64,000 bases of DNA from Candidatus Poribacteria bacterium. GTDB lineage: Bacteria > Poribacteria > WGA-4E > WGA-3G. The position numbers and the translations under genes were made by a program. The notes beneath the pieces were generated by a model, which worked only from the letters and a program-made list of their open reading frames with translations, made no database searches and had not been told where the DNA came from. Shown piece after piece: positions 12,495 through 54,674 of the stretch (the stretch's first letter is position 1; every line of letters begins with the position of its first letter). The DNA is taken from assembly GCA_963665235.2 (NCBI GenBank), contig CAXXLX010000001.1, positions 1,534,902 to 1,598,901 on the forward strand, read 5' to 3'.

Positions 12495-12995
12495 CAAAAC
12501 CGCTTACGAACATAGACGGGGCAGGCGTTCAGGAACATCCACCACCGAGAACCGAATGTCACACTTTGTGTCAAAAGTGTAACATTTACACCAGAACAGC
12601 ACACAAAAGTAGGCAGGAGTGATAACCGAAAACCGGCAGCCAAAATGGCACAACGCGTTTTTTTGTGTTGCGAAAAATATAGGGGTAAATCGCCTATAAA
12701 CATAGACGTGGCGTGGGTTTGTGCGAATACAGCACCGAGAACCAAATGTTACACTTTGTGTCAAAAGTGTAACATTTCCACCGGACCGCCTCAAAAAGTA
12801 GGAGGCAGCACGGTAAGAAAAGTCCGCAGAACTGATACCTGAAATCGGCGGTTGAAATGACACATTTTGTTTTTTTTGTGTTGCGAAAGCGAGAGTGCAA
12901 AACGGCTTACAAACATAGATAGGGCATGCGTTTGTGCACATGCAACACCGAAAACCAAATGTTACACTTTGTGTCAAAAGTGTAACTTATGCACC
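12495..12995 (+). repeat. degenerate tandem repeat, ~190-215 bp x 3, each with a 10-bp-stem hairpin
   Basis: Units start near 12495, 12683 and 12897. Each carries GTTACACTTTgtgtcaAAAGTGTAAC (one copy has GTCACACTTT). Confidence 0.7.
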
Positions 12996-13001
12996 GGTTT
13001 T

Positions 13002-13023
13002 GTACAAAAACTTTACACACCCC
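13002..13023 (-). repeat. word W1 (inverted copy) followed by AATCAGAC
   Basis: GTACAAAAACTTTACACACCC(C), then AATCAGAC at 13024-13031. Confidence 0.85.
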
Positions 13024-13096
13024 AATCAGACAAGACGATTGACATTTAAGCCAACACAGGGTAAAATAAACGTAACGTTATAAGGAGAACTCCTTC

Positions 13097-14633: not shown

Positions 14634-14659
14634 CACAGCATATTGCAAGGAGAAATATC

Positions 14660-16357: not shown

Positions 16358-19300
16358 CTACTCGAAATCGCCGCGGACTGTTAGGGCACTTGCAACAGAG
16401 AGGAAATCTCTGCCCTCTTCAACCCTATCGTGATTATAACTGATACCTAAATGTAGGTTAGCCGTTAGATACGTGCTGATTTTGTACCCTGCGCGGAACG
16501 TTGTTTCATATCGTTCTGAACGTTCCTCTCTATTGGCACCGTAGTGTTCCCTGCGGATTGCCCAAGAGAGCGTGTTTGTGAGTTCCAGGTCGTGCTTAAG
16601 CGGAATTCTGCCGATAAACGGCAAACGAATCCCGCCTTCGGTGCGGTAACGGTAATCTATACTGAAGTTTGGGGTGATGATAAGTGCATTGCTTTCAATA
16701 CCACTGCGTTCCTGGTTGCGGAGTGTGGTACGGATACCGAGTAACGTTCGGGTCTCCTGCCCCCATGAGTGGTTCCAGCTCAGGGAAGGCGTGTGTGCCG
16801 TGCTGTCGCTGAGGGTAGTTTGTAGGTTCGCATTCTGCCGCGTTGTAAAACTGTATCGGAGTTGAAAGCTAGAGGTTTCTTGCGCCTTAATTTTGATGTC
16901 CGCCTCATAAGTTTCTGCATTCGAGGTGTACGTGCTGCCCAGGCTTTTCCTGAAACTGTTGGATGTAATGACGTTGCTACCGAGGGTTGCCCATCTCCAC
17001 GGGGTCACAGAGCTTCGGACTGTGTAGCGATTGCTTCGCCGGGAATTGGAACGTTCCGTTGCCTCTGGTGCGAGCTGCCATAAGTCTACGATAGATAGTC
17101 CAGACTCCAATTGGCGATAGGACTCGGTGGCACTGAAGGTCGCGTTGGTATTCAGAGTGAAACTTTTCAGAATTCGATGCAAAATGCCTTCTTGTGACGG
17201 GGTCGGAGGTTGCTGTGCTCGCTGCCCTATCGTGCCCCCATTGTCAGTAGGAGGCGAAAGCTGCTGTGCCAATTCTGCCTTATCCCGAGTAATCCAGTCG
17301 CTGCGGTTTTCCTCTATTTCCTGAATCTGTGCTTCGTCGATACCTTTTTCGCGTAACTGTTGAATCTGGTTGTCAGTTGTCGGCTGTCCGGTCGCTTTTC
17401 GTTCATCAACCTGCTCCCTCTTTTTTTCTTCAGTCAAAAGCCATGTGAACCACTTCTGAATACGAATATTCACACCGAGGCTGACATTGCCGTTGAGTGA
17501 AGCGTTCTTCTGTTGACTGAACCAGTTTTCGCGAAAACTGACACGGCTTGTGACGGTGGGCCGCATCCCCAGGAGGTCGCGATTGAGGCGCGGTGTGAAA
17601 GCGAGGCGATGCTCACGTTCCGCCATAGAAAAATCCGGCACAGCCGTGTCCTCAACATCAGTTTCCCCTCCTTGCGAAGGGTTAGGGGAAACGGTATATC
17701 GGCTCTCGTCTCGCCTTTCAAGCGTTCGGCGGATGTCATAGCTCGGATTAAGGCTAAAAATGTTTATCGGTGTGATGTTAAGTGTAATAGAGCCGCTATC
17801 TGTTTTCTCGTCCCGATTTCTGCCGTAACCGTAACTGAAGTAGGAGGAGGTTGTTCCCGTTGTATCTGTGGCAGTTTCCGGCTTTGCGAGGATATCTTCA
17901 TGCCGGTATTGTGCACTGAATCCGAGTTTTGTGCCGATGTCATATTGAAAGGTGCCCGTGTAGAGATGACTAATCTGTGTGCCTTGCCGCTCGTTCCAAA
18001 AATCCTGATAATTGTAGGCGAAGCCGAGGTTCGGAAGCGGATTACGGTTGAGTCTGACAGAAAAGTCTCTGTTGTGCGTTTCACTTTTTCCGCTCTGAAA
18101 AGAGCTGTAGCTACCGCGCTGTGCTTCCGTTTCAGATTCCTGCTCCCGGATGGCATAGCGGATGGGCAACCATGAAAAGAGGGTGACATCCGCATTGATA
18201 TTGAAGTCGTTGTTTGTTGTGCTGTACCCGCGTGAAGAGAGCCGTTGCCTGCCGATTTCACCTGTTCCGCTTTCAAAATCCTTGTCTTGACTGGCGTAAC
18301 CGCCTCGGAGCCGGACCAAATTGCCGAGGGACACTGACATATCGCCTCGGCGTGCCCAGCCGGCCCGTACAAGCGGGTCGCCGAGATGGATTTCGTTAAC
18401 CCAGACCTCACCGCTGATTTCCTGTTCCGTATCGTTTCGGATACCTATCAGAATGCCGCCGATATTTTTAATAGAGAGCCGCGAACTACTGACCTGTGTC
18501 CCCGCGCCCCTGATTGTGAACCCATCCGGATGCCCATCGGGGCCATTTGATATTACGGGCGGGTTTGTGTCGGGCTGTGTGTCGGAGAAAGGTGCTTGGG
18601 TGTTTTCTGCATCTGGATATTCATTTTTCCGCTGGTCCCGCAGGTCAATTTCAATCAACTTCCAGCCTTCAAAGTCAATCGGCACGGTGTATTCATAGTA
18701 ATCTGTCAGATTCTCAAAAACATTGACATCCTCCTGTTGAGGTTGGTTCACAAAGGGGTCGGCACTGTAAAAAGAGCTTCGGTAGCCTGTTCGGACAGTC
18801 GGAGCAAGTTGTAGGACAAAGGTTGTATAGCTTTTATCGCCGTATAACCAGAGCCGTAAGGTATCGTGTTTGCTAAAGTCTTGGCCCTCGCTTTGTGTGA
18901 GTCCTTTGAGTTGCTTGGAGGTAATTCCGTGGGAGTCAGGGAACAGATAGTATTCTAAGCTAAGCGTCTGTTCGCGTTGCTGTTGTGTTTGAAAGCCGAG
19001 CGATGTTGCGGTGAACGGGTGCAGTTTTTTAAAAAGTTCGTTGTCCTCAATTTCAAGGTATGCACTCTGGTATGTGTCATAATTGAAGTTATCCTTTGTG
19101 CCAACGATGAACCTTTCCGGTGTATCTTGAACCACCTCTCGGTCCGATAGTGAGCCTGTAGCGTCGGTGAGCGCGCGGGTGACGATACCGCGTTCCCATT
19201 TGTTGCCAACGATTTCTATAGATGCCCATTGGAATGTGCCTTTCACGTTACCGGGGCGGTTTTTGATAAGCCAAAATCGGCAGTGCTGAACGAATACTAA

Positions 19301-22300
19301 ACTCGGTACGCGGGAGCCTTCGGGGGTAAATGCTGAAATTGGAATGCTGAGAAACGTCCAGCCGTTGTTATTTGTGCTTTTAATCCATTCGTTCGGAATT
19401 TCATTGAGAGGTATTGCCACTTGGAAATACGCATCAATTTTATCAAGCACACCATCGCCGTTCAGGTCTTCGCTATCAAGAATTTGGTTATCTGCCCCGA
19501 CAGCTATAGGTTCACCTGCGCCATCGTACATCCACCCTATATCTTCACCTGTATCGAGTGCGCCGTTCCCCCGATGGCGGAGTGCCTCCGGTAGGTTTTC
19601 AAGGTCCAGGTCGAGTGCGTCGACGTTTCCATCTCCGTTCGTATCGGTTAGCGTCTGTGGGAGGTCTTCGCTGTCTAGGTAGTTGTCAGCATCGGTGTCT
19701 TCGTTGACGATACCAAAATTGAGGAGTAGGGTGACATCGTCGTCGCCTTGGACGCGCATCCACATTTCAACGAGGCCGCGTTCGGAATAGTCTGCCCCTG
19801 CTTTTGAGAGTTGTAAGGCGAACCCGCCCCATTCTTCGACCACATCTGTGAAATCGTAGCCGACTTCCATAATCAACCGTTCTTCGGTTGAAAGTGAGAG
19901 CGGTTGGATTGAAGATGCGGGGACATCTCGGTTTCGCATATAATTGCCCACCGCTTCAGAATCGTCCTTATCTTTCAGCGCGACTTTAAAAAGTGCCCTA
20001 TTCTCTTGTGTCGGCGTGTACTCCAAGCTGTTAGTATTCTCCTCTGGTGAGTCTGGGATGTATGGGACACTACTAGGTTTCCAGTTGTATTTTAGGGTGG
20101 GGACCGTTGCGGATTCCCTTGCGCCCTCCATACTATCAATTAGGGCAACGCCGATGCTATTCGGGTTGTTATGTGAGTATGCAGCTTCGCCACTGAAGTC
20201 AATAGAGAGCGGAAAGTTTTGCATGGATATAAGCGGTAACGGGTTTAGCAACCACGCCATGTTGAACGTTTTACCGAAACTACTGTTGACATTGAAGGCT
20301 TGTAAGCGGTTCGGTACACTGTTGACATCCGGAACCTCTACCTGTTTTTGGCCGGTGGTTAAAATATAGCCTGTTGAAAGTGTAAAATCCTTTTGGAACA
20401 CCGGATTGAAATAGGATGTCCCGCCGCCGTAGCCGCCGAGATACCCCTGTCCGATTCGGGAACGGCCGCCGAAGCCTCCGAAGCTTCCATACCCGCTACT
20501 TCCAAATCCCCCGCCAAAACTGCTCTGTCCAAACCCACCGCCGAAGCGACCGCCTGCACGCGGGAATCCCCCAATAGGCGGAAGGTCCAAATCGCCCCCT
20601 CCAATTGTCTCGTCACTCACATCTGTCCCGGTTATTTGTAAACCGCCTAACCGCCTAAATCTATCCTCAAGATTCTGTTCTCTCTGCGATTTCGCTTTCG
20701 GTTTGTGCGTATATTCCAGCCAAACCCCCGCGACGGCTTGCTGTGATGCCCCCCCGAAGGGGGTTCTCTCAAATTCTACGACGATTTCATCGAATTCATC
20801 CAATTCTGTGAAGAACCGGATACTTCCAACTTCGTAAACCATCAGATACTCTGTATCTCGCGTGAGCCGCCGTCCGTTGAGACGAACGGTTTCACTGTCC
20901 GGAATGACAAATAATCCGACATTATAGGTCTCGGATTGATAGGAGTAATCCGCAATAATTGTGTATACTTGGTCGGTGTTGCGAATGCTTTCAAAATAGA
21001 TGGCCGCGTTGTTGAGCGAATCGCGATACTCATAATAGGGATGGGTTGGGTCTTTAATTTCGAACGGGTCAAAATCGGGAAAGCGCAGTAAACCCCTGTC
21101 ATAGTCAATAAACTCGACATCAACGTTGCCATCCCCGTTTTGGTCTAATCCAAAGATTTCAAGGTAAGGCACAAGTCCCTCTTCTGTCTGAAACGTTTCA
21201 CTTTCACCTTGTCGTACGATTGTCAGTTGAAAATCGCGCGGGTTGATGTTGCGATTACCGAGGCTGTAGACATGACTTGCTTCCGTGCCGCGAAATCCGT
21301 CCTCCTTTAGCACAATATAGCCAAGCTCTTCCCCCTCTTCATCTATGATGCCGTCTCCGTTTTCGTCAGCAAAGACGTTGCCGGGGGCCCCAACGGTTCC
21401 GCCCCCATCGCCGAGGTATTCATAAGCCACAACGATAGTATAGCTGGACGAAATAGGCGACAAAAACTCTATCTCTCCAGTTTCATAGTCTATGTTGTAA
21501 TCCTGCCCGGGGAATTGTGGATTGAAATAGCCCCGGCTTGTGCGTTTTCCGCCTTGATTGTTTCCGACTACACTATCGTCAATATAGATTTCCTCACTGC
21601 CCGATTTAATCGGCAGATAGGCTTCGTGCAGGAGGCCATCCTCCCCCTGCTGAATGAGATAGAATCTATTTTTAACATAATTTGCATCCGCTATCTGAAT
21701 ACCGCGCGGTCCGTAGCCGAAACTTGCACGCCGGGACTGCCCGCGGAACGTGCGTACCTCACGTACACCTTTACTTCGAGAACCGAACGCGGTCAAGCGA
21801 GCGTTCTTATATTCAAACACGCCCTCCAAACCGAATAGGTTGCGGTTAATGTTTAAGAAACGTGTGTTCGGCAGGTTGAGCGTAATATCCCCGAACGAAA
21901 TCGTTTTGATGAAACTATCCGGTTTGCCTTCATACCAGATTTTTATTTTTTGTTCTTTAGCTCCATCCAAACCGTATCCGCTGTATCCCCCGCCGTATCC
22001 GCCATATCCGCCTGTGCCGCCGCCGAATGTATTGCCCGCGTTGTAATCCACAGCAATATGCATCCGTTCCCCTACGCGGCCGTGCAGCCCAATCTGCTGC
22101 TGTTGTCGGATATTAATACCTGTTGCACGTGGAATCCCACTGCCGTAGCTGCTATATCCACCATAGCCGCCATACCCTGAATCATAACTCGAATATCCTC
22201 CCCCAAATCCGCTACTGTATCCGAAATCTTCGTAACCGTAAGAGGAGGTGAGCCCAAGGTCCAGCCCGGAACTGTAGCCGCCATAATTGCTATAGCCATA

Positions 22301-22774
22301 ACCGCCGTACCGATTCAGATCGCCTTCGCCGAAGTAGTGTGTTTTGTTGACCTCAACCGTAACAGATTGGTGAATTTTTATCTGAAGATTAGAATCCATG
22401 GGGAGGTCTATCCCTTTAGTATCGCGCTTGGGCCGCGGTTTCCAATCGTAGAGTTCGGAGAGATTACCGAGGTCGGGCGGATACTTCCATCTACGCAGCG
22501 TCTCCAAGTAGGGCAGCAACGACTGTCGACGTAAAGTCTCGTCCGAATCTGCAGCGGGGTCAGTTGGTTCTTCTGTCGTCGCCTCCGTTTCAGAATCGCG
22601 CTGCGTCCATATCGTCTGTTTCGGAAACGTGTAAAACGGTTCCGCAGATTTTTCCGGGGGGGGTGTTGGGATAGATTCCTCCTTGTCCGCGGTTAAGGCA
22701 GGTTCAGCAAAAACGTGAAAACCGAGGACAAGCAGGAATAGCAAATTATAAATAAATTTTCTATTTTGATTCAC
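16358..22774 (-). CDS. giant SprA-like outer-membrane protein (putative T9SS translocon family)
   Basis: 2138 aa with a signal peptide. The segment ISFGDITLNLPNTRFLNINRNLFGLEGVFEYKNARLTAFGSRSKG resembles the SprA N-terminal signature. The C-terminal third has alternating beta-strand character. The size class fits. The assignment is from memory, not from a search. Confidence 0.55.
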   Translation of the reverse strand: MNQNRKFIYNLLFLLVLGFHVFAEPALTADKEESIPTPPPEKSAEPFYTFPKQTIWTQRDSETEATTEEPTDPAADSDETLRRQSLLPYLETLRRWKYPPDLGNLSELYDWKPRPKRDTKGIDLPMDSNLQIKIHQSVTVEVNKTHYFGEGDLNRYGGYGYSNYGGYSSGLDLGLTSSYGYEDFGYSSGFGGGYSSYDSGYGGYGGYSSYGSGIPRATGINIRQQQQIGLHGRVGERMHIAVDYNAGNTFGGGTGGYGGYGGGYSGYGLDGAKEQKIKIWYEGKPDSFIKTISFGDITLNLPNTRFLNINRNLFGLEGVFEYKNARLTAFGSRSKGVREVRTFRGQSRRASFGYGPRGIQIADANYVKNRFYLIQQGEDGLLHEAYLPIKSGSEEIYIDDSVVGNNQGGKRTSRGYFNPQFPGQDYNIDYETGEIEFLSPISSSYTIVVAYEYLGDGGGTVGAPGNVFADENGDGIIDEEGEELGYIVLKEDGFRGTEASHVYSLGNRNINPRDFQLTIVRQGESETFQTEEGLVPYLEIFGLDQNGDGNVDVEFIDYDRGLLRFPDFDPFEIKDPTHPYYEYRDSLNNAAIYFESIRNTDQVYTIIADYSYQSETYNVGLFVIPDSETVRLNGRRLTRDTEYLMVYEVGSIRFFTELDEFDEIVVEFERTPFGGASQQAVAGVWLEYTHKPKAKSQREQNLEDRFRRLGGLQITGTDVSDETIGGGDLDLPPIGGFPRAGGRFGGGFGQSSFGGGFGSSGYGSFGGFGGRSRIGQGYLGGYGGGTSYFNPVFQKDFTLSTGYILTTGQKQVEVPDVNSVPNRLQAFNVNSSFGKTFNMAWLLNPLPLISMQNFPLSIDFSGEAAYSHNNPNSIGVALIDSMEGARESATVPTLKYNWKPSSVPYIPDSPEENTNSLEYTPTQENRALFKVALKDKDDSEAVGNYMRNRDVPASSIQPLSLSTEERLIMEVGYDFTDVVEEWGGFALQLSKAGADYSERGLVEMWMRVQGDDDVTLLLNFGIVNEDTDADNYLDSEDLPQTLTDTNGDGNVDALDLDLENLPEALRHRGNGALDTGEDIGWMYDGAGEPIAVGADNQILDSEDLNGDGVLDKIDAYFQVAIPLNEIPNEWIKSTNNNGWTFLSIPISAFTPEGSRVPSLVFVQHCRFWLIKNRPGNVKGTFQWASIEIVGNKWERGIVTRALTDATGSLSDREVVQDTPERFIVGTKDNFNYDTYQSAYLEIEDNELFKKLHPFTATSLGFQTQQQREQTLSLEYYLFPDSHGITSKQLKGLTQSEGQDFSKHDTLRLWLYGDKSYTTFVLQLAPTVRTGYRSSFYSADPFVNQPQQEDVNVFENLTDYYEYTVPIDFEGWKLIEIDLRDQRKNEYPDAENTQAPFSDTQPDTNPPVISNGPDGHPDGFTIRGAGTQVSSSRLSIKNIGGILIGIRNDTEQEISGEVWVNEIHLGDPLVRAGWARRGDMSVSLGNLVRLRGGYASQDKDFESGTGEIGRQRLSSRGYSTTNNDFNINADVTLFSWLPIRYAIREQESETEAQRGSYSSFQSGKSETHNRDFSVRLNRNPLPNLGFAYNYQDFWNERQGTQISHLYTGTFQYDIGTKLGFSAQYRHEDILAKPETATDTTGTTSSYFSYGYGRNRDEKTDSGSITLNITPINIFSLNPSYDIRRTLERRDESRYTVSPNPSQGGETDVEDTAVPDFSMAEREHRLAFTPRLNRDLLGMRPTVTSRVSFRENWFSQQKNASLNGNVSLGVNIRIQKWFTWLLTEEKKREQVDERKATGQPTTDNQIQQLREKGIDEAQIQEIEENRSDWITRDKAELAQQLSPPTDNGGTIGQRAQQPPTPSQEGILHRILKSFTLNTNATFSATESYRQLESGLSIVDLWQLAPEATERSNSRRSNRYTVRSSVTPWRWATLGSNVITSNSFRKSLGSTYTSNAETYEADIKIKAQETSSFQLRYSFTTRQNANLQTTLSDSTAHTPSLSWNHSWGQETRTLLGIRTTLRNQERSGIESNALIITPNFSIDYRYRTEGGIRLPFIGRIPLKHDLELTNTLSWAIRREHYGANREERSERYETTFRAGYKISTYLTANLHLGISYNHDRVEEGRDFLSVASALTVRGDFE

Positions 22775-24460: not shown

Positions 24461-26662
<2,202 letters not shown>

Positions 26663-27782: not shown

Positions 27783-30185
27783 CTACTCCTTTTTACCTTG
27801 CTGCAACCGAAACGGCTCGCTTTTGACAATTTCTGTAATGAGCACAGTGCTGCTATACTCTTTCGCCTCGAGTTCATCGACAATCCGCTCGACCGTCGGC
27901 CGGTCGTAATATGCTAATCCTCTGCCGAGGGCGTAAGTTAGCATTTTCTCGGTTAGACATTTTGCAAAGTGCTGCTTTCTATCTTTGAGAATCTGTTTTA
28001 GGTCGGTTATACCCTGAAATGATGTGCCATCTGGCAGTTCTCCAGTTGTATCGAGTAGGAGCTCCCCCTCCTTTGTTCGGAATGCCCCGATAGCGTTGTA
28101 GTTTTCAAGTGCGAATCCAATCGGGTCCATTTTGGCGTGGCAGTTCGCACATGCGGGGTCTTTTCGATGTTGTTCGAGTCGTTGCCGCAAGGTCTTTCCG
28201 CTGATTGCCTCATGTTCCTCCGCTAATTCTGGGACGTTCGGGGGTGGAAGTGGCGGCGGTGAACCGAGTATCTGTTCAAGCACCCAACGACCACGTTTGA
28301 CAGGTGAGGTCCGGGTCGGATTGGAGGTTACTGTGAGCACACTCCCGTGCGTTAAGATACCGCCGCGTGTTGCATTTCCTAACGCAACCCGCTGAAAACC
28401 GTTCCCCTGGACTTTGTTCCCATTTATGTCCTTGTAGATGCCGTAATGCCTTGCTAAGGGTTGATTGAGAAAGGTGTAGTCTGCATCGAGCAGCGTAAGA
28501 ATGCTCCCGTTTCCACGAAAGATTGAATCTAAAAAGAGTTCGGTTTCCTTCAACATCGCTTGACGCAGTTTCGGGGTGAAAGTTGGAAACTGTTGAAGGT
28601 CGGGGGCAACCGTTGTAAGACGTTGAATCTGTAACCACTGCGTTCCGAAGTTACGTGCTAATTCTGTCGCTTTGGGGTCCGCGAGCATCCGCTTAACTTG
28701 CGCCTCAAGGTTGACAGTCAGCTGCTTTTCCTCAGCGAGTGCGAAGAGTTCATCGTCCGGCATACTGCTCCACAAAAAGTAGGAGAGCCGGGAGGCGAGC
28801 TGAAATTCATCAAGCGGGTAAGGATTACGGCCTTGGGCTCGGTCATCTAATTCCCATCGAAAGAGAAATTTAGGGGAGCAGAGAACGATTTTAAGTGCTT
28901 GTTGAATCCCTGCTTCCCACTTTTCACCATCGGCCTGGACGCTCTCTACAAATTGTGCAAGTTTTTCCACTTCAGCTTCACTGGGCGGCCTGCGATATGC
29001 GCGGCGAAGCAGACGCGTCAACACTTCACGGGTCTGTGCTGCCTGTGGGATATTCGGCGTACATGCCAAAATTTTGCGTTGAGAGACGGGACGGGTGTCT
29101 AGCGGCCCCTCTGACCATAGCAAGCGAATCATGAGCTTGGCTTCGGGTTCACCTTGTGCAGGTTTAACCATCGCTATTCCTGCCTTTTCGACGTTAGGGA
29201 TACGGCTGACAAGGGTTTCAATCGTCTGCGGTTTTTTCGGGTCGCGGGCGGTAATCTCGAACGTCTCCAAAATTTTGATTCTGTTATCTGCTGTGGGGTC
29301 AACGCCGACAAGCTGTGCAAGTTCATCAGGTGTAGAAACCGCTGCTAACGTTTTTCCCTGAACGAATAGTGCCGCCTTCACAGGCGTTTGACGCTCCGTT
29401 TCGGCATAAAGGGTTGCCCGGTATAAAATCTCTATATCGGGGAGAAACCTGAGATGCGCTGCACCTGTCGTAAACGGTCCTGTTTTCCAAGGCTCTTCGG
29501 CACCTGGGTCAAGCAGGCGAAAACGGTTCGGGGGTACGTCTCTGTGACGGGGGTCAAGCCGTTGTCCTCTCTGATACCGCCTAGCTGGCGGCGGCGGCTC
29601 CACAAGGATAACCCGTTCAGCGATTGCCTCCGCTGCTTCTAAATAACGTTCCATCAACAGCGGGGACATCGTCAGCACATCGCCGATGTTATCAAACCCA
29701 TGCCCTATATCGTCAGCAGGAAAATTTACAGTCGGATCGAAATCAACGTAGAGTAGGTCTCGGACGGTGTTTTTGTATTCAACTTTATTGAGCCGGCGTA
29801 CCGTAACTCGCCCCGGTTCAGGTTTAGCTGTCCGCGCTGCGTTTTCAAAAATCGCTTCAACATGCCCGACAAACGTTTCGCGCTCTGCCATAGAGGGTTG
29901 TGTGCTATCTGATGGCGGCATCTGATTTGTCGTTAGCATATCCAAAACGTTTTCCCAAATATCGTGATGCTTGATTATGGAGAGGTCATCCGGAAATGCG
30001 TCAAGTGAAAGTTCAGCGGCGGGCTCCTCACCGGCGTGGCATCCGAAGCAGTACTGTTTCAAAAAAGGAACGTCTACTTTCGCAAAGTCGGGGGGCTCCC
30101 GACCTGATAGGTTGGGGACAGATGCAATAAACACCAGCATCAGGAGCAGACAGAGATGTTGTGGGATGTAATTACGTGCGGTCAT
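27783..30185 (-). CDS. DUF1587/DUF1592/DUF1595/DUF1588/DUF1585 multi-domain protein with CxxCH motifs
   Basis: Contains CFGCH and CANCH, VTVRRLNKVEYKNTVRDLL (DUF1587-like), TSPVKRGRWVLEQILG (DUF1588-like) and CHAKMDPIGFALENYNAIG (DUF1585-like). The start was set at the ATG at 30185 rather than the TTG at 30200. Confidence 0.85.
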   Translation of the reverse strand: MTARNYIPQHLCLLLMLVFIASVPNLSGREPPDFAKVDVPFLKQYCFGCHAGEEPAAELSLDAFPDDLSIIKHHDIWENVLDMLTTNQMPPSDSTQPSMAERETFVGHVEAIFENAARTAKPEPGRVTVRRLNKVEYKNTVRDLLYVDFDPTVNFPADDIGHGFDNIGDVLTMSPLLMERYLEAAEAIAERVILVEPPPPARRYQRGQRLDPRHRDVPPNRFRLLDPGAEEPWKTGPFTTGAAHLRFLPDIEILYRATLYAETERQTPVKAALFVQGKTLAAVSTPDELAQLVGVDPTADNRIKILETFEITARDPKKPQTIETLVSRIPNVEKAGIAMVKPAQGEPEAKLMIRLLWSEGPLDTRPVSQRKILACTPNIPQAAQTREVLTRLLRRAYRRPPSEAEVEKLAQFVESVQADGEKWEAGIQQALKIVLCSPKFLFRWELDDRAQGRNPYPLDEFQLASRLSYFLWSSMPDDELFALAEEKQLTVNLEAQVKRMLADPKATELARNFGTQWLQIQRLTTVAPDLQQFPTFTPKLRQAMLKETELFLDSIFRGNGSILTLLDADYTFLNQPLARHYGIYKDINGNKVQGNGFQRVALGNATRGGILTHGSVLTVTSNPTRTSPVKRGRWVLEQILGSPPPLPPPNVPELAEEHEAISGKTLRQRLEQHRKDPACANCHAKMDPIGFALENYNAIGAFRTKEGELLLDTTGELPDGTSFQGITDLKQILKDRKQHFAKCLTEKMLTYALGRGLAYYDRPTVERIVDELEAKEYSSTVLITEIVKSEPFRLQQGKKE

Positions 30186-30509
30186 CGTTATTTTTCCCAA
30201 GCTGCAGAGCGTTGGGGTTTTTGCTAATGTTGTGTTTTTTAGGATTACATTTTAAAATGATACCACAGAATCTTGCGAAAGTCAAGTGAAAATTTGGGGG
30301 TTAGAGTGAGATGTTAAAGTTTTTGTCACATGGATAGGTGGAAGGGTGGAAGATTGGAAGAGGGGAAGCGAAAAAAATTGTCTGAATTACGGATTAGCGC
30401 GGAAAACGCATAAAATGAAAAAAATCGCAAAAAAATTTGACATTTATGATTTGACATTTATGCAAATCTGTGGTACACTTAATGACATAAAACAAACGCG
30501 ATTCGACCT

Positions 30510-39347: not shown

Positions 39348-41909
39348 TTATTTGCGTATTAACATCTTCCGAGTTGCGGAGAATTTTCCCGCTTCTAGGG
39401 TGTAAAAATAGACTCCACTCGCTACAGGCTCACCTGCTTCGTTTTTGCCATCCCAATACGCTGCACGATTCCGACTGTGATAAAGCCCCGCAGCCTGATT
39501 GCCTAAGACTAACTGCCGAACCAATGTCCCATCCGCAGTATGTATAGATATACGGACATCCGCGGAGTTTGCCAACTGATACGGTATCCACGTCTCCGGG
39601 TTGAACGGGTTCGGATAGTTCGGAAGCAGCCCAGTCTTTTTGGGTGTTAATATTGCGAAAAGTTGTTGTAGGAAATGAATACCGCGTTGTGCCGTTGGTT
39701 CGGTAAGTGGCAGCTGCTGTGCTTGTGCGAGCCACTGCTGCACCGCTTTTGCGGTAAGCGTAGGCGGTACCTTTTGATACACGGAGGGTGCTGCCGCTGC
39801 GTCGGCAAGTGCTGCTGCAACCTGGATAAGGTCTGCAATGTTGACAACGCCATCCCCGTTGACATCGGCAGGATTTGGACCTGTCTGTCCGAAGTTTGCA
39901 GCGACGATGACTAAATCGTGAACATCTACGACACCATCCCTGTTTACATCCGCTTCAAGTGGAATCAACTGTTCGGGTGGTATTTGTCCGGGGTTGATTA
40001 TGGAAGGCAAATCCCATAAAAGTATTGTCCCGTACCAATTACTAGTAGCGAAGGTTTTTCCATCCGGACTGAACACAAGGTCATCAATCCCATTTGGCAT
40101 GCCTCTTAGGATTGATTCACTTTCGCCACTTATTGCATCCCAAATTTGCACTGTTCCCTCGCTTCCAGCAGTTATGAGCGTCTGTCCATCTGGACTAAAC
40201 GCAAGCTCGATATAGCGATCGGTCTGCTCAATAGGGATTATCTTTCTGTCACTACTATTAATACTCCACAAATAGAGTTCTCTATTTTTCCATACAATAG
40301 CGAGGGTATTTCCATCCGGACTAAACGCAATATTACTGATTCTGCTTCTGTACGCGGGTGCATGGAATGTCGCTATGGCCTGTCTACTTTCAATATCCCA
40401 CAAACGTATTTCTGAATCGATGCCAATTGCAAGTTTCTGTCCATCCGGACTGAAAGTAACAGCTAAATAGCCTTCCTGACGTTCACCTTCAGAGATTGTC
40501 CATATAGGATTACCCGTAGCAACATCCCAAAAAATTGCCTTTTTAGTGGATGTTGCCAAAATGCGTCCATCTGGACTAAAGTTAACATTAGAACCAGAGG
40601 TTTTGTGTCCGAGAAGCGTTGCCTTCTGTGTGCCTGAGGCAGCATCCCATAACCTTACTGTGTGGTCAACGGCGAACCAGTAATAGCCAGAAATTGAGCC
40701 ACCACTACTAGCTATAGTCTGCCCATCTGAACTAAAGTCGACAGATACAGCAGGGGTTGGATGTCCCCGGAGGGTTCTTGTGTTTTTACTTGTTGTGGTA
40801 TCCCAGAGCCGCAGCGTTTTATCCTGCCCTGCGCTTACAATTGTCTGTCCAGTCGGACTGAAGGCGATATCAGAGAATCCGCTGGTATGTCCTGTTATTG
40901 TTATTTTTTGCTGTAGGCTCTCCGTATCCCATAAAATGATTGTGCTGTCGAAGCTACCGGTAGCGAGCAGAGTTCCCTCCGGATTAAAAGCAACACTTAC
41001 GACTTCGTCCGTATGTGCTATGAGGGTCGTTTTATAGCCGCTCGTAGCAACGTCCCATAGACACGTCGTGCCATCCTTGCTGCCACTTGCGAGGGTGCGG
41101 CTATCTGGACTGAAGTCGACACTTCTGAAACTATGCACGCGCCGTCTAAGGATAGTTTTACGTCTGCCGGTAGCGACATCCCACAGATGGGCTCGGCTTT
41201 CCAACCAACCTTCATGCCCTGCGAGAGTTTTTCCATCCGGACTGAAGGTAACATTCTCAGTACCCCAGCCAATCTCGTTGTCTGTTGTGAGAGTGGTTTT
41301 GAGTTCACCCGTGGCAACATCCCACAACTTTACCGTGTTCTCTTCATCATCCCCCCCGCTTGCAAGGGTTTTCCCATCTGGACTGAAGGCGATACTGCTA
41401 ATATCATCTCTATGTCCCATAAACGTGGTTTTCAGTGCTCCAGTCGCAACGTCCCAAAGCTTCACTGTTGGCTCTTCGTAGTCACCCGCAGTAGCGAGGG
41501 TTTTTCCATCCGGACTGAACGCGACATCTGATATTTCGTTCGAGTGTGCTGCCACTACGATTTTGCGTTCGCCTGTAGCAACGTCCCATATATAAAATTC
41601 TGCGCCACTGCTACTTGTGAGGGTTTTCCCATCTGGACTGAAGTCGACACTTGAAACATACCCTATATGATTGGTGAGCAGCTTGCGTTCTTTCCCTGTG
41701 CGTACATCGTAAAGCCAAACGCCTATAGAACTCGGCACAGCGAGCAGGGAAGTATATCGTGAAAAGATTATATTGCCAGAGATTCTTCCCTTCCCAAGGC
41801 GCATTTTGGCACCCGCGGGCAACCCCCATCGTTCGCTTGAAAAAGCAGGTGGTAAAAAGCATGTTGCTATAAGAAGTAGTGCTAAAATGGTAAATCGTAT
41901 CGTTTTCAT
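39348..41909 (-). CDS. WD40 array gene A1: signal peptide + 14 WD40 blades + dockerin-like module + T9SS-type CTD
   Basis: 853 aa. 14 WD-type blade endings (LWDV.TG and similar). DVNRDGVVDVHDL...DVNGDGVVNIADL. C-terminus LLPNYPNPFNPETWIPYQL...GVYFYTL. Confidence 0.85.
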   Translation of the reverse strand: MKTIRFTILALLLIATCFLPPAFSSERWGLPAGAKMRLGKGRISGNIIFSRYTSLLAVPSSIGVWLYDVRTGKERKLLTNHIGYVSSVDFSPDGKTLTSSSGAEFYIWDVATGERKIVVAAHSNEISDVAFSPDGKTLATAGDYEEPTVKLWDVATGALKTTFMGHRDDISSIAFSPDGKTLASGGDDEENTVKLWDVATGELKTTLTTDNEIGWGTENVTFSPDGKTLAGHEGWLESRAHLWDVATGRRKTILRRRVHSFRSVDFSPDSRTLASGSKDGTTCLWDVATSGYKTTLIAHTDEVVSVAFNPEGTLLATGSFDSTIILWDTESLQQKITITGHTSGFSDIAFSPTGQTIVSAGQDKTLRLWDTTTSKNTRTLRGHPTPAVSVDFSSDGQTIASSGGSISGYYWFAVDHTVRLWDAASGTQKATLLGHKTSGSNVNFSPDGRILATSTKKAIFWDVATGNPIWTISEGERQEGYLAVTFSPDGQKLAIGIDSEIRLWDIESRQAIATFHAPAYRSRISNIAFSPDGNTLAIVWKNRELYLWSINSSDRKIIPIEQTDRYIELAFSPDGQTLITAGSEGTVQIWDAISGESESILRGMPNGIDDLVFSPDGKTFATSNWYGTILLWDLPSIINPGQIPPEQLIPLEADVNRDGVVDVHDLVIVAANFGQTGPNPADVNGDGVVNIADLIQVAAALADAAAAPSVYQKVPPTLTAKAVQQWLAQAQQLPLTEPTAQRGIHFLQQLFAILTPKKTGLLPNYPNPFNPETWIPYQLANSADVRISIHTADGTLVRQLVLGNQAAGLYHSRNRAAYWDGKNEAGEPVASGVYFYTLEAGKFSATRKMLIRK

Positions 41910-41920
41910 AATCTCCTCTC

Positions 41921-44485
41921 CTATTTTCGTATTACCATTCGCCGTGTAGCTGTTACATCGTCTGCGGATAGTGTGTAGAAATACACCCCGCTTGCGACCG
42001 GTTCACCCCGTTCATTTTTTCCATCCCAATAGGCAGCACGGTTTTGATTTTGATAAATACCGGCAGGCTGATGCCCTAACTTTAGCACTCGAACCAAGTG
42101 CCCCGTGGCAGAATGGATTCGAAGTGTCACCTCGGCGGCGTTTGCCAACTGATAAGGTATCCACGTCTCCGGGTTGAACGGGTTCGGATAGTTCGGAAGC
42201 AGCACAGTCTTTTTGGGTGTTAATATTGCGAAAAGTTGTTGTAAGAAATGGATACCCCGTTGCTCCGTTGGCTCGGTAAGTGGAAGCTGCTGTGCTTGTG
42301 CAAGCCACTGCTGCAACGCTTTTGCGGTAAGCGTAGGCGGTACCTTTTGATACACAGATGGTGCTGCGGCTGCATCGGCAAGTGCTGCTGCAACCTGGAT
42401 AAGGTCTGCAATGTTGACAACGCCATCCCCGTTGACATCGGCAGGATTTGGACCTGTCTGTCCGAAGTTTGCAGCGACGATGACTAAATCGTACACGTCT
42501 TCGACACCATCCCTGTTTACATCCGCTTCAAGTGGAATCAACTGTTCGGGTGGCATTTGTCCGGGGTTGACTATGAAAGGAAAATCCCATAAAAGTATTG
42601 TCCCATCCCAACTACTAGTAGCGAAGGTTTTTCCATCCGGACTGAACACAAGACTATCAATCCCATTTGGCATGCCCATGAGGGTTGATTTACTTTCGCC
42701 ACTTATTGCATCCCAAATTTGCACCGTTCCGTCCCTTCCAGCAGTTATGAGTGTCTGCCCATCTGGACTAAACGCAAGCTCGATGTAGTAACTAGTCTGC
42801 TCAATAGGGATTATTTTTCTGTCGCTACTATTAATACTCCACAAATAGAGTTCTCTGTTTTTCCATACAATAGCAATGGTATTTCCATCCGGACTAAACG
42901 CAATATTGCTGATTCTGCTTCTGTACGCGGGTGCATGGAATGTCGCTATGGCCTGTCTACTTTCAATATCCCACAAACGTATTTCTGAATCGATGCCAAT
43001 TGCAAGTTTCTGCCAATCCGGACTGAAAGTAACAGTTAAATAGCCTTGCCTACGTTCATCTTCAGGGATTGTCCATATAAGATTACCGGTAGCAACGTCC
43101 CAAAAAATTACCTTTCTAGTGGACTTAGCCAAAATTCGTCCATCTGGACTAAAGGTAACATTACCACCAGAGGTTTTGTCTCCGAAAAGCGTTGCCTTAT
43201 GTTTGCCCGAGGCAGCGTCCCATAACCTTACTGTGTGGTCAACGGCGAACCAGCCAGTGCCAGAAATCAAGGTGCCACTACTGGCTATAGTGTGTCCATC
43301 TGAACTAAAGTCTACAGACCCAACAGGCGTTGGATGTCCCCGGAGGGTTCTTGTGTTTTTACCTGTTGTAGTATCCCAGAGCCGCAGCGTTTTATCCTGC
43401 CCTGCGCTTACAATTGTCTGTCCAGTCGGACTGAAGGCGATATCAGAGAATCCGCTGGTATGTCCTGTTATTGTTATTTTTTGCTGTAGGCTCTCTGTAT
43501 CCCATAAAATGATTGTGCTGTCCCAGCTTGCGGTAGCCAGCGTAGTTCCATCCGGACTGAACGCCACACTTGCGATTGCATCCGTATGCGCTATGAGGGC
43601 CGTTTTATAGCTGCCCGTAGCAACGTCCCATAGACACACCGTGCCATCCATGCTGCTACTTGCGAGGGTGCGGCTATCTGGACTGAAGTCGACACTTGTG
43701 GTCCCACCCATGTGCCCTATAAGGGGAGCTTTAGGTGTGCCGGTAGCAACATCCCATAGAAACAATTGCTTTCCCCACCAACCTTCACACGCTGCGAGGG
43801 TTTTCCCATCCGGACTGAAGGCAATATTCCTGACACCCCGGAGGCCGAACTCATCCTTTGTTGTAAGAGTGGCTTTGAGTTCCTCCGTGGCAACATCCCA
43901 CAATTCTATCGTATTTTCTTCATCATAACCCCCGCTCGCGAGGGTTTTCCCATCCGGACTGAAGGCGATACTCCTAATATCATCTGTATGTCCCCTAAAC
44001 GTGGTCTTCAGTGCTCCCGTGGCAACGTCCCAAAGCTTCACTGTTGGCCCCTCGTAGTCACCCGCAGTCGCGAGGATTTTCCCATCCGGACTGAAGGCAA
44101 CATCTGAGATTTCATTCGAGTGTGCTGCCACTACGATTTTGCGTTCACCTGTAGCAACGTCCCATATATAAAATTCTGATCCACTGCTACTTGCGAGGGT
44201 TTTCCCATCCGGACTGAAGTCGACACTTGAAACATATCCTGTATGATTGGTGAGCAGATTGCGCTCTTTCCCCGTGCGTGCATCGTAAAGCCAAACCCCT
44301 ATAGAACTTGGCACAGCGAGCAGGGAAGTATATCGTGAAAAGATTATATTCTCATAGACTATTCCCTTCCCAAGGCGCATTTTGGCACCCGGGGGCAAAC
44401 CCCATCGTTCGCTTGAAAAGGCTGGTGGTAAAAAGCATGTTGCTATAAAAAGTAATGTTAAAATAGTAAATCGCACCGTTTTCAT
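41921..44485 (-). CDS. WD40 array gene A2 (type A body, B-type CTD)
   Basis: 854 aa with the same architecture. Its stop is 11 nt before the A1 start codon (spacer GAGAGGAGATT). Confidence 0.85.
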   Translation of the reverse strand: MKTVRFTILTLLFIATCFLPPAFSSERWGLPPGAKMRLGKGIVYENIIFSRYTSLLAVPSSIGVWLYDARTGKERNLLTNHTGYVSSVDFSPDGKTLASSSGSEFYIWDVATGERKIVVAAHSNEISDVAFSPDGKILATAGDYEGPTVKLWDVATGALKTTFRGHTDDIRSIAFSPDGKTLASGGYDEENTIELWDVATEELKATLTTKDEFGLRGVRNIAFSPDGKTLAACEGWWGKQLFLWDVATGTPKAPLIGHMGGTTSVDFSPDSRTLASSSMDGTVCLWDVATGSYKTALIAHTDAIASVAFSPDGTTLATASWDSTIILWDTESLQQKITITGHTSGFSDIAFSPTGQTIVSAGQDKTLRLWDTTTGKNTRTLRGHPTPVGSVDFSSDGHTIASSGTLISGTGWFAVDHTVRLWDAASGKHKATLFGDKTSGGNVTFSPDGRILAKSTRKVIFWDVATGNLIWTIPEDERRQGYLTVTFSPDWQKLAIGIDSEIRLWDIESRQAIATFHAPAYRSRISNIAFSPDGNTIAIVWKNRELYLWSINSSDRKIIPIEQTSYYIELAFSPDGQTLITAGRDGTVQIWDAISGESKSTLMGMPNGIDSLVFSPDGKTFATSSWDGTILLWDFPFIVNPGQMPPEQLIPLEADVNRDGVEDVYDLVIVAANFGQTGPNPADVNGDGVVNIADLIQVAAALADAAAAPSVYQKVPPTLTAKALQQWLAQAQQLPLTEPTEQRGIHFLQQLFAILTPKKTVLLPNYPNPFNPETWIPYQLANAAEVTLRIHSATGHLVRVLKLGHQPAGIYQNQNRAAYWDGKNERGEPVASGVYFYTLSADDVTATRRMVIRK

Positions 44486-44495
44486 CCTATACCTC

Positions 44496-47015
44496 CTATT
44501 TTCGTATTACCATTCGCCGTGTAGCTGTTACATCGTCTGCGGAGAGTGTGTAGAAATACACCCCGCTAGCGACCGGTTCACCGCGCTCATTTTTTCCATC
44601 CCAATAGGCGGCACGGCTTTGATGTTGATAAATACCGGCAGGCTGATGCCCTAACTTTAGCACTCGAACCAAGTGCCCCGTGGCAGAATAGATTCGAAGT
44701 GTCACCTCGGCGGAGTTTGCTAACTGATAAGGTATCCACGTCTCCGGGTTGAACGGGTTCGGGTAGTTGGGGAGCAGCACAGTCTTTTCAGGAATTAATA
44801 CAGTCAAAAGTTGCTCAAGCCTTGCAATTCCTTTCTGTAAAGTAGGGGTGTTGCTGCTAACTTGCCGCGCTTGGCTTAACCAATCTCGCACCTCCGCAGC
44901 GGTAAGCAGGTCTATAGGGTGTGAACGGCTTGAGGGTGCGCTGCTTCCGTTTTCGAGTGCAGCGGCAACTAATAAAATATCCTCTATGTTGACGATGCCA
45001 TCTGCGTTCACATCGGCATCACTTTCCTGTTCAGACTGCCCGAGTTGGGAGGCTACAAAGATTAGATCTTGAAGGTCTACGACACCATCACGATTCACAT
45101 CCTCAGCGTGTTGGACAGGGGCAACGGGACCGTCTGAAAAAGTGGTGGCATCCCACAAAAGCACCGTCCCATCCGAACTTCCACTTGCAAGCGTTTTTCC
45201 ATCCGGACTAAAGACGATATTGCGAACACTATACCTATGCCCTGTGCGGGTAAGTTTCAGGTCGCCAGTCGCAACATCCCAAAATCGCAGTGAGGTGTCG
45301 TCATAGCCTGCCCCGCTACTAACGAGCGTTCTACCATCAATACTGAAGTCGAGACTATTTATCCCATCGGTATATCCTGTATGGATAACACGCGATTCAT
45401 CGGTGGCAACATTCCATAGAATAATCGTATTGTCCTTACTACCACTTGCAACTATGCTAGCATCCGGATTAAATGCAACGTCATATACACGGTCTGTATG
45501 CCCAGTGAAAAGCCCTATCTGGTTGCCAGACGCAAAATCCCACAAACGGACTGTCCTATCGTGACTTCCACTCACAAGGATACGGCTATCCTGACTGAGG
45601 TCAATTGAAGTAACCCCTGCCGTATGTCCAGTAAATGCCGCTACCTGGGTGCGCCCCAAACGCCATATATGCACTGCTGTACTGGTATCGCTCGCCCCCG
45701 CGAGAAATTGACCATCTGGACTGAAGACAACCTCGCTAAATCCCCAACTCTCGGTTAACCTGTCTCCACCATACCCTTCGAGTGCTGCAATGTACGTGCC
45801 ACGGCTCACATCCCAAAGAAATACCACTGAATATGAATAACAAGCGAGGGTGTTTCCATCCGGACTGAAAGCTAAGCTACGATTAAATGACCAATCCCTC
45901 AAATATATGCCTGTTTTGTATTCGGCTGTAGCAGGGGCCCATAGATGGATTTCTTCCCTACCTCCAGTAGCAAGTGTTTTTCCATCCGGGCTGAAGGCGA
46001 TTGCTGCAACTCCGATCGTATGACCCGAAATAGACAGCTTGCGTGTACGGCTTTTAACGTCCCACAGAAATAACCCGCTTCCGCCACCGCTTGCGAGAGT
46101 AGTGCCATCCGGGCTGAAAGCGATACCGCTAACTCCCCAGGGATGCCCGCTAAGTTCGGCTATATGCGTCCCATCAGCAGCGTTCCAAAGATGCAAATCT
46201 CCCCTACCGCCAGCAATCGTGTTGCCATCCGGACTGAGCGCAATGCGATATATATTTGAACCTGTCCTGAATTTTTGCTGTTTCCTAGTCTCAATATCCC
46301 ATAGGTTGATAGTGTTCCCGTCCACAGCTATAAGTTTGCTACTATCCTGGCTGAAAAGTAGACGATCATATCCGCGCGCGTACTCGGATAAAGTGGTTTT
46401 GTGTGTAGCCGTCGCAACATCCCACAAGCGTAACGTGTTATCGTAACTCCGACTCGCAAGTGTGGTGCCATCAGGACTAAATGCAATTGCGTCCACAGAT
46501 TTAGTATGGCCGGTGAACGTAGCTCTTTGCTCGCCAGTGGTAAGTGACCAAAGCTGAATCTCTTCTCCGACACCGTAGGCAAACATCTTACTATCTGCAC
46601 TAAAGGTGCTCCTATCTGCCCAGAAGACGACCCTACGAATATCCTCCGCATCCGCTTTTAGTGTTGCTTTCACGCTGTTAGTTGTGAGGTCGCGCACCCG
46701 CACTATATCGTCCGCGTCCAAACTAACATACGTCTGAGCATCCGGGCTCACCCCGATAAAAGTTGACGGACCTAATGCGATAAAATCCAATTCCACACCC
46801 GTGTGTGTATCATAAATCCATAAACCTATAGAACTTTGAACAATCAGCCGGTTGCCATCATGGGAAAACATTAAATTCCCTACAGACCCCTTACCAAGTC
46901 GTGCTACTGCCCCTTCAGGTAAATCCCACCGTGTATAATCTTCCGCAAAAACGTTTGCTAGAAAAAGAGGGAAAACCAATAGTAATGCTAAAATCGACAG
47001 TTTTATATTTTTCAT
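44496..47015 (-). CDS. WD40 array gene B1
   Basis: 839 aa. Type-B N-terminus (AEDYTRWDLPEGA). Same propeller, dockerin-like and CTD order. 10-nt spacer to A2. Confidence 0.85.
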   Translation of the reverse strand: MKNIKLSILALLLVFPLFLANVFAEDYTRWDLPEGAVARLGKGSVGNLMFSHDGNRLIVQSSIGLWIYDTHTGVELDFIALGPSTFIGVSPDAQTYVSLDADDIVRVRDLTTNSVKATLKADAEDIRRVVFWADRSTFSADSKMFAYGVGEEIQLWSLTTGEQRATFTGHTKSVDAIAFSPDGTTLASRSYDNTLRLWDVATATHKTTLSEYARGYDRLLFSQDSSKLIAVDGNTINLWDIETRKQQKFRTGSNIYRIALSPDGNTIAGGRGDLHLWNAADGTHIAELSGHPWGVSGIAFSPDGTTLASGGGSGLFLWDVKSRTRKLSISGHTIGVAAIAFSPDGKTLATGGREEIHLWAPATAEYKTGIYLRDWSFNRSLAFSPDGNTLACYSYSVVFLWDVSRGTYIAALEGYGGDRLTESWGFSEVVFSPDGQFLAGASDTSTAVHIWRLGRTQVAAFTGHTAGVTSIDLSQDSRILVSGSHDRTVRLWDFASGNQIGLFTGHTDRVYDVAFNPDASIVASGSKDNTIILWNVATDESRVIHTGYTDGINSLDFSIDGRTLVSSGAGYDDTSLRFWDVATGDLKLTRTGHRYSVRNIVFSPDGKTLASGSSDGTVLLWDATTFSDGPVAPVQHAEDVNRDGVVDLQDLIFVASQLGQSEQESDADVNADGIVNIEDILLVAAALENGSSAPSSRSHPIDLLTAAEVRDWLSQARQVSSNTPTLQKGIARLEQLLTVLIPEKTVLLPNYPNPFNPETWIPYQLANSAEVTLRIYSATGHLVRVLKLGHQPAGIYQHQSRAAYWDGKNERGEPVASGVYFYTLSADDVTATRRMVIRK

Positions 47016-47026
47016 AAGTGCCTCTC

Positions 47027-54674: not shown

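Follow-up and report, generated by a model that had tools for sequence, protein, structure and literature searches.

How does a bacterium use six long WD40 proteins that look exported and are encoded one directly behind the other, and by what route might such proteins leave the cell? The question is raised by a tandem gene array at 39348-54674, on the minus strand of a 64,000-nucleotide (nt) stretch of a Candidatus Poribacteria genome. We refer to this whole stretch as the window, and array coordinates are counted from its first letter. Poribacteria are a phylum of sponge or coral symbionts; in marine sponges they rank with the dominant uncultured symbionts, and their many repeat proteins are assumed to mediate contact with the host. 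Each protein of the array joins a predicted signal peptide and a WD40 double propeller to a dockerin, a helical linker and a C-terminal domain (CTD) resembling the type-A sorting domain of the type IX secretion system (T9SS). The reading that we favour, with a probability of about one half, is that the proteins are exported by Sec, cross the outer membrane through a T9SS-like translocon and are then assembled by cohesin-dockerin contacts into a layer of propellers on the cell surface.

Six genes of two types, separated by short spacers

Six ATG-started open reading frames (ORFs) of 839-854 amino acids (aa) run head to tail from 54674 down to 39348. They encode two protein types in the order B-A-B-B-A-A, with 80-87% identity within a type and 41-44% between types. 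Gene 1 (52137..54674; type B, 845 aa) has the full set of modules found throughout the array, namely signal peptide, 14 WD40 blades, dockerin, helical linker and T9SS type-A CTD. It is followed by gene 2 (49564..52125; type A, 853 aa), the type-B genes 3 (47027..49552; 841 aa) and 4 (44496..47015; 839 aa), and the type-A genes 5 (41921..44485; 854 aa) and 6 (39348..41909; 853 aa). Gene 6 is the copy used for AlphaFold2 (AF2) modelling.

The stop-to-start gaps along the array measure 11, 11, 11, 10 and 11 nt. Three of the five junctions (1-2, 2-3 and 5-6, with spacers at 52126..52136, 49553..49563 and 41910..41920) share one string, TAG-GAGAGGAGATT-ATG, and the preceding TAG plus this spacer forms AGGAG Shine-Dalgarno motifs over the stop codon. 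The remaining spacers read GAGAGGCACTT (junction 3-4, 47016..47026) and GAGGTATAGG (junction 4-5, 44486..44495, the 10-nt gap). An earlier note, made from the letters of this DNA, had described six co-directional reading frames of this size with 10-11 nt gaps, three identical junctions and two sequence types in the order given above; the ORF listing, pairwise identities and clustering all agree with it.

Upstream of gene 1, a 285-nt region (54675..54959, minus strand), divergent from a PPDK-like gene, presumably holds the promoter. It includes an 8-nt tandem repeat, AACCGCAA, present in 3.4 copies at 54872-54898 (the coding strand of the array reads GTTTTGCG); none of the 85 related loci examined has this repeat. 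Scans for promoters and terminators found no enrichment over shuffled sequences and are hence uninformative. The GC content of the array, 0.47-0.50, is the same as that of its surroundings and uniform across the window, and a horizontal-transfer island was rejected as the source of the array on account of this match to the flanks.

Domain architecture of the array proteins

All six proteins match the WD40 family (PF00400) at E values of 1e-74 to 1e-94 in 6-9 stretches, and 14 xWD motifs, which mark the ends of blades, follow one another about 42 residues apart. The AF2 model of gene 6, for which 85 homologues were used (mean pLDDT 86.4, pTM 0.70), has about 59 beta-strands within residues 34-633, helices at 663-671 and 691-704 in the dockerin and at 720-730 and 738-754 in the linker, and a beta-sandwich at residues 773-851. 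In Foldseek comparisons its top match in the Protein Data Bank (PDB) is the 14-blade propeller 2ymu_A (E 1.4e-50, 35% identity), and the next matches are eukaryotic double propellers, among them 8i7o_P1 at a TM score of 0.77. The 14 blades and two seven-bladed propellers proposed in the earlier note are thus borne out by family match, blade count and fold, as is its helical linker of about 55 aa by the two linker helices.

The modules of gene 6 can be laid out along the minus strand as follows. A signal peptide (41835..41909; aa 1-25, MKTIRFTILALLLIATCFLPPAFS/SE, placed by heuristic) precedes the double seven-bladed propeller (40002..41825; aa 29-636). The dockerin (39795..39956; aa 652-705) has the calcium-loop/helix segments DVNRDGVVDVHDL and DVNGDGVVNIADL, and the linker (39633..39794; aa 706-759) leads to the C-terminal beta-sandwich (39351..39632; aa 760-853), a domain of the FlgD_ig or T9SS type-A sorting kind.

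Each N-terminus has two basic residues, a hydrophobic core with a Kyte-Doolittle value of 2.2-2.9, and an AFS/SE or VFA/ED site, and this region is conserved in the alignment of 85 homologues. Judged by a hand heuristic (n, h and c regions and the -3/-1 rule), all six proteins carry predicted Sec signal peptides, in keeping with the cleavable-looking signal peptides noticed earlier.

Since WD40 models otherwise crowd the match lists, the C-terminal 225-233 aa of genes 1 (type B) and 6 (type A) were scanned apart. In these fragments Dockerin_1 (PF00404) scores 34.1-34.6 bits, against a gathering threshold (GA) of 22.9. The two loops, DVNRDGVVDxxD and DVNGDGVVNIxD, occur in all six proteins, each with a helix after it in the gene 6 model, and together they form the duplicated calcium-binding loop, with D/N at positions 1, 3, 5, 9 and 12, of a type I dockerin. 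What had been described as a dockerin-like pair of motifs is therefore recognized as a dockerin by the family model as well.

For the CTD, the T9SS type A sorting domain model TIGR04183 gives 29.3-33.9 bits in all six full-length proteins, against a cutoff of 23, and FlgD_ig gives 37.9-40.9 bits in the two fragments, against a GA of 27. The modelled CTD of gene 6 superposes on FlgD Ig domains (E 1.7e-4), slightly better than on T9SS CTDs. Among the latter, it matches PorZ (5m11) with a root-mean-square deviation of 2.3 over 73 columns (E 1.5e-3) and the NucA and RemZ CTDs at TM scores of 0.57-0.58, and it also superposes on the T9SS CTD of PorU. Across the 85 homologues the motifs NYPNPFNP and GxYFY and a basic last strand are invariant. 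The array proteins also show weak matches to TolB propellers, at 45-80 bits and far under the cutoff of 343.

Divergence and recombination among the copies

Paralogues of the same type are separated by dS values of 0.18-0.28, with omega at 0.32-0.45. We take the genes to be functional because of this omega; the copies are mostly under purifying selection. Their DNA identity in sliding windows is a mosaic, with blocks ranging from 63% to 100%. The CTD of gene 5, a type-A gene, is 97% identical in nucleotides to that of the type-B gene 4 (dS 0.14, in a pair that is otherwise saturated), and this B-type CTD is a gene-conversion tract. Likewise, gene 2 of type A has an A-type CTD core, and its last ~110 nt are 96-97% identical to the type-B genes 3 and 4. 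CTDs have been exchanged between the types, and the genes of the array have diverged, are under selection and recombine among themselves.

Constraint is distributed unevenly along the proteins. The dockerin and linker are the most constrained parts (omega 0-0.2, lowest in the dockerin), and omega in the propellers is 0.3-0.6. The propeller values rule out positive selection across the whole domain, which a combinatorial repertoire would lead one to expect. Such a repertoire of binding proteins, put forward in the earlier note, finds some backing in two short stretches with pN/pS above 1, but the prevailing selection is purifying. In 40-codon windows, pN/pS reaches 2.3-4.3 at aa 230-290 of type A (Nd 44-68 versus Sd 3-9) and 1.2-2.0 at aa 98-155 of type B. 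Both peaks have a nominal p of about 0.003 by a rough estimate, fail correction for multiple tests and come from pairs that are not independent. They are suggestive of local surface diversification, a signal that is not robust to multiple testing or recombination.

An old B-A gene pair amplified in Poribacteria

Full-length homologues of gene 6 (about 850 aa) are 50-57% identical to it, and NCBI lists them as 'T9SS type A sorting domain-containing protein [Candidatus Poribacteria bacterium]'. When one genome was scanned for each GTDB species, at least 576 confirmed stretches with family members emerged. Among the best 80 of these, 78 lie in Candidatus Poribacteria metagenome-assembled genomes or complete chromosomes and the other two are titled 'uncultured bacterium'; one genome often yields several family loci. 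The family is therefore spread across Candidatus Poribacteria, and its core architecture is not new.

To compare array organization we use the DNA regions examined around family matches, which are designated by L numbers. Tandem WD40 arrays are common among these related loci. The position syntenic to the window is set by a downstream HAD hydrolase, GFO/IDH oxidoreductase and sulfotransferase, which share 70-89% identity in 13 loci; what it holds varies from one WD40 gene to at least six. Clustering the propeller regions of 40 array members separates clean A and B clades that are older than the species divergences. Strict B-A-B-A alternation is found in eight of eight related arrays, which contain two (L004), three (L007), four (L002, L053, L056 and L063), five (L005) or seven (L006) copies. 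The comparison of synteny and copy number proposed in the earlier note accordingly speaks for the array, with 2-7 copies recurring at the same position in independent assemblies.

The three A copies of the window are monophyletic and so are its three B copies, which implies recent amplification or homogenisation. The best explanation of these patterns appears to be that the window array is a lineage-specific tandem amplification of an old poribacterial B-A gene pair. Across genomes the spacers are mostly 8-14 nt long, with a few junctions of 61-74 nt in L006 and L007, and typically start TAG-GAG, so that a Shine-Dalgarno motif of the AGGAG type overlies the stop codon. This is a classic layout for translational coupling, from which we infer co-transcription and near-equal synthesis of B and A.

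Two observations from related loci concern variants of the arrays. Loci L069, L074, L080 and L081 encode a WD40 sub-family of about 700-765 aa that has the CTD and lacks a dockerin motif; its members stand in arrays of their own, with 5-9 copies and spacers of 23-90 nt. On a related chromosome (L001/L003, 6218-9990), an array member is split by an insertion sequence element with a DDE transposase, leaving a 165-aa remnant that has the CTD only.

A widespread C-terminal cassette and cohesin-bearing siblings

With the last 214 aa as query, at least 6746 proteins are retrieved at E<1e-10, and the dockerin-linker-CTD cassette follows WD40, leucine-rich repeat (LRR) and LDL-receptor-B modules. Some of the retrieved proteins also exceed the threshold of the Pfam Cohesin model. 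On the strength of these matches, the cassette of dockerin, ~55-aa helical linker and T9SS type-A CTD is a general module of what are predicted to be thousands of poribacterial proteins. Dockerins in these genomes fall into three subtypes (A, B and that of the cohesin-bearing proteins described below), each conserved across genomes.

Larger siblings of the array proteins, about 960-990 aa long, have the order WD40x14-cohesin-dockerin-linker-CTD. The Pfam Cohesin model (PF00963) scores 27.9-39.2 bits, against a GA of 24.1, in seven of the eight tested, and a family-specific cohesin hidden Markov model (HMM) gives 36 strong matches (E below 1e-26) and three marginal ones in 80 loci. Some arrays are built solely of the cohesin-bearing type (L034, L057 and L071). 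Elsewhere a cohesin-bearing gene lies 460-710 nt upstream of a B-A array (L001/L003, L005, L056 and L063) or is present there as a partial copy (L053); the window array has the PPDK-like gene at its upstream side. One candidate for a stand-alone cohesin-dockerin-CTD protein, P0165, was rejected, being the C-terminal part of a WD40 protein that a scaffold gap had interrupted. Two other short cohesin-dockerin-CTD proteins, P0139 and P0246, also lack a signal peptide, perhaps through similar truncation.

A divergent SprA homologue near the array

The ORF at 16358..22774 (minus strand, 2138 aa) matches TIGR04189, the SprA/Sov model, with an E value of 8.7e-42 and 142.6 bits, under the equivalog cutoff of 200. 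It has 92 homologues; among those of about 2100-2350 aa, many lie on complete Poribacteria chromosomes. A precomputed SprA_N match is recorded for many of the homologues, and the most distant are named 'cell surface protein SprA'; identity to annotated SprA is about 23%. A direct phmmer search of the ORF against the PDB found nothing, and the match emerged only with a profile: 19 homologues combined align along about 730 positions with Flavobacterium johnsoniae SprA (PDB 6h3i_A; E 1.1e-70). Taken together with the TIGR04189 match, this upholds the translocon candidate of the earlier note. By homology, the ORF is a genuine, divergent SprA homologue that is conserved in Poribacteria, and it is likely the export channel for the CTD-bearing proteins. 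Public records name the poribacterial homologue just 'hypothetical protein' or 'LysM ... protein'. A search of the 64 kb window for PorV, PorU, PorZ, GldK/L/M/N or PorK/L/M/N, SprE and SprT/PorP found none of them.

A model for export and surface assembly, and its alternatives

How might these elements work together? The domains and homologies, the synteny, the pairing rule and the pattern of selection are observed. In the model that follows we infer that the genes are transcribed, the proteins secreted, their CTDs processed and their dockerins bound by cohesins, and the same holds for any ligand. A single transcript from 54675-54959 would cover all six genes, and translational coupling through the stop-overlapping Shine-Dalgarno motifs would yield similar amounts of A and B. 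The predicted signal peptide would take each protein to the periplasm, and the CTD would direct its passage through a T9SS-like outer-membrane translocon, for which the SprA homologue, encoded 17 kb away, is the candidate. At the surface, type-specific dockerins would bind the cohesins of the larger WD40-cohesin-dockerin-CTD siblings, proteins whose modules are present in relatives. The outcome would be a coat made of beta-propeller binding platforms, cellulosome-like in its assembly but without enzymes.

A more far-reaching version of this model is possible, although we regard it as tentative and would not expect all of its parts to hold. According to it, a divergent T9SS outside Bacteroidota exports not only WD40 but also LRR and LDL-receptor-B modules, which a cohesin code of three dockerin subtypes then wires together on the surface, the B-A pairs being heterodimeric units supplied in equal amounts. 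Chains or lattices could form, because the cohesins sit in WD40 siblings that also carry dockerins.

Several findings weigh against the model of export and surface assembly. A cohesin-docked assembly, one of the two possibilities raised in the earlier note, is a live hypothesis because cohesins exist in sibling WD40 proteins of related Poribacteria, but a six-frame hmmsearch of the 64 kb window with the family-specific HMM found no cohesin in any frame (best E 1.8). In bacteria without cellulosomes there are many dockerin-like modules for which no cohesin partner is known. The window array is the only one to depart from B-A alternation, with B-A-B-B-A-A against the order of the eight related arrays, and strict pairing is therefore not obligatory. 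Assignment of the CTD to the T9SS type-A or FlgD-Ig kind, as earlier proposed, holds insofar as TIGR04183 and FlgD_ig exceed their cutoffs; a second T9SS model, PF18962, stays at 21.4-24.3 bits in the two C-terminal fragments, under its GA of 27, and the domain fits FlgD_ig better than any T9SS model. T9SS genes were not found beside the SprA homologues in two other genomes. Finally, Kamke et al. (2014; PMC3909097) reported no Por structural genes in Poribacteria, using partial single-cell genomes.

Could the proteins instead be soluble effectors of a eukaryote-like kind, released by the CTD route to act on the cells or matrix of a sponge or coral host, for example in the avoidance of phagocytosis, with a dockerin that has no role in assembly? 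T9SS cargo may be released rather than anchored, WD40 proteins are among the eukaryote-like repeat proteins abundant in Poribacteria, and the local pN/pS values above 1 would suit such a role. Counter to this, the pN/pS peaks lose significance after correction, and T9SS cargo goes to the surface or the medium, not to the host cytosol. Within the protein, constraint is strongest on the dockerin, whose type-specific signatures are shared across species; this, with cohesins in siblings, argues for retention in a complex. In addition, Robbins et al. (2021; PMC8163846) found WD40 repeats to be abundant in Poribacteria, yet not enriched in sponge-associated relative to seawater genomes. We consider this explanation unlikely. 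We also doubt, to a similar degree, that the propellers are anchored individually by CTD processing, with the dockerin as a calcium-dependent structural or glycan-binding module and no cohesin-dockerin network. That view would account for a window without a cohesin and for sub-families of about 760 aa that form arrays without any dockerin (L069, L074 and L081), and partnerless dockerin-like modules are common outside cellulosomes. It sits poorly with the presence of cohesins in the same family, beside the same cassette and often adjoining arrays, and with three dockerin subtypes each kept across genomes.

That the proteins stay behind as TolB-like components of the periplasm or outer membrane, with the C-terminal Ig-like domain as a FlgD-type structural element instead of a secretion signal, seems very improbable to us. 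The best sequence and fold matches of the CTD are indeed FlgD Ig domains, PF18962 falls under its threshold and there are the weak TolB matches; against these stand a TolB score of 45-80 bits where 343 is the cutoff, TIGR04183 scores over cutoff in six of six proteins, terminal motifs and a basic last strand that are invariant in 85 homologues, and a SprA homologue conserved in the phylum. An assembly expansion or collapse, for which nothing speaks except the repetitive nature of the locus, has a negligible probability. Copies of the same type differ by 13-20% at the protein level, the locus sits on a 4.36 Mb contig, and the independent assemblies with arrays at this position include complete chromosomes. 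The paralogues have diverged, as the dS values and mosaic blocks show, and the synteny recurs across genomes; an origin of the copies in collapsed or duplicated reads is thereby ruled out.

Relation to known systems and significance

The array proteins belong to the same family as the proteins that Kamke et al. reported in 2014 in PLoS One, where poribacterial eukaryote-like proteins, especially those with WD40 repeats, were found to carry a TIGR04183-type domain; the export route of the tagged proteins was explicitly left open there (PMC3909097). The earlier note's statement that no characterised system has this architecture is correct only in the sense of uncharacterised, given that report and the hundreds of members annotated. 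In the text searched, neither a tandem WD40 arrangement nor A/B pairing is mentioned; we add these here, together with the cohesin-bearing siblings and the SprA homologue. In the literature searched we found no paper beyond Kamke et al. that joins Poribacteria with dockerin, cohesin or T9SS machinery, and none that brings together Poribacteria, WD40 and dockerin. Within the same literature, the poribacterial SprA homologue, the cohesin-bearing WD40 siblings and the syntenic B-A arrays with stop-overlapping Shine-Dalgarno motifs appear to be undescribed.

How far does the array resemble systems that are known? T9SS cargo of Bacteroidota, exported by SprA/Sov (PDB 6H3I, 8GL8), has like the array proteins an N-terminal signal peptide and a beta-sandwich CTD of about 90 aa that exceeds the TIGR04183 cutoff; the modelled CTD also superposes on those of PorZ, PorU, NucA and RemZ, if slightly less well than on FlgD Ig domains, and the genome has a SprA homologue. 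The cases differ in the host phylum and in the SprA of the array genome, which is very divergent and under the equivalog cutoff. They also differ in the cargo, which is an enzyme or adhesin in Bacteroidota and a WD40 double propeller with a dockerin in the array. With the cellulosome of Clostridia, the poribacterial system has in common a type-I dockerin near the mature C-terminus, PF00963 cohesins in partner proteins and several dockerin subtypes. Its cargo, however, consists of WD40 propellers and not of carbohydrate-active enzymes. No multi-cohesin scaffoldin was seen here, and each cohesin sibling examined has a single cohesin region plus its own dockerin. Clostridial anchoring by SLH domains or sortase is replaced by a T9SS-type tail in a Gram-negative host, and the cohesin-dockerin binding is putative. 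The highly repetitive 14-blade WD40 propeller of Nostoc punctiforme (PDB 2YMU) resembles the array proteins in its two seven-bladed propellers; that structure covers the propeller part only, and the match is silent on the signal peptide, dockerin and CTD.

If the more far-reaching version of the model is true, the long-missing secretion route for the poribacterial CTD proteins would have been found, along with a machine for binding and not for catalysis. T9SS-type secretion would also reach beyond the phylum usually given as its limit, the system being restricted to Bacteroidetes according to one review abstract (PMC11611037). WD40 proteins with embedded cohesin and dockerin would represent a non-catalytic use of the cellulosome assembly principle. 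The conserved SprA homologue makes export of TIGR04183-tagged proteins directly testable, and the conserved B-A pairing supplies concrete constructs for expression and testing. Together, B-A pairing with coupled spacers, the cohesin siblings and the SprA homologue turn a question open for a decade into a testable model. If none of it holds, the locus is simply an extensive expansion of paralogues in a family that is annotated but uncharacterised.

Other features of the window

Two further WD40 genes had been noted at 13097-16216. WD40 ORFs are indeed present there, but one is fragmented and neither has a dockerin or a CTD. At 13097-14633, a family-like WD40 gene with a signal peptide and the conserved N-terminal motif appears broken: the ORF 13097-13720 ends in the right arm of an inverted repeat, and the blades resume in the ORF 14148-14633. 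The 5' end of this gene is held by a segment of about 1.56 kb between long inverted repeats (12200-13762, with 14033-14090). Its arms (12283-12380 and 13593-13690), 98 nt long and 95% complementary, are made of 32-nt tandem units, CATAAACTTCCAGTTTGTGCGCTTTATCGTAG. Three direct repeats of 127 nt lie inside the segment, and every one of them includes a 34-nt palindrome that is almost perfect. The segment is possibly an invertible or MITE-like element.

The second gene (14564-16216, plus strand), convergent with that of the SprA homologue, encodes 550 aa with a lipoprotein-like signal peptide, TPR repeats and a seven-blade WD40 propeller. It has a near-threshold match to YbgF/CpoB (84 bits versus 90) and very weak ones to two T9SS lipoproteins, PorW/SprE (30.5 versus 250) and PorE (23.8 versus 600). 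The combination of TPR repeats and propeller recalls the N-terminal half of PorE, with scores far too low for any claim.

A DUF1552 gene (22908-24251) and a DUF1592/DUF1588/DUF1585/DUF1587/PSCyt gene (27783-30200) form a planctomycete-type pair, which flanks a KatG-like peroxidase gene (24461-26650) and a 337-aa ORF without assignment. Towards the start of the window, at 3819-5100 and 5391-8289, two adjacent DDE transposase fragments lie beside two ORFs without a family match and a type-III restriction endonuclease-like gene (RE_endonuc, PRK15483). This group of genes may be what is left of a mobile defence islet.

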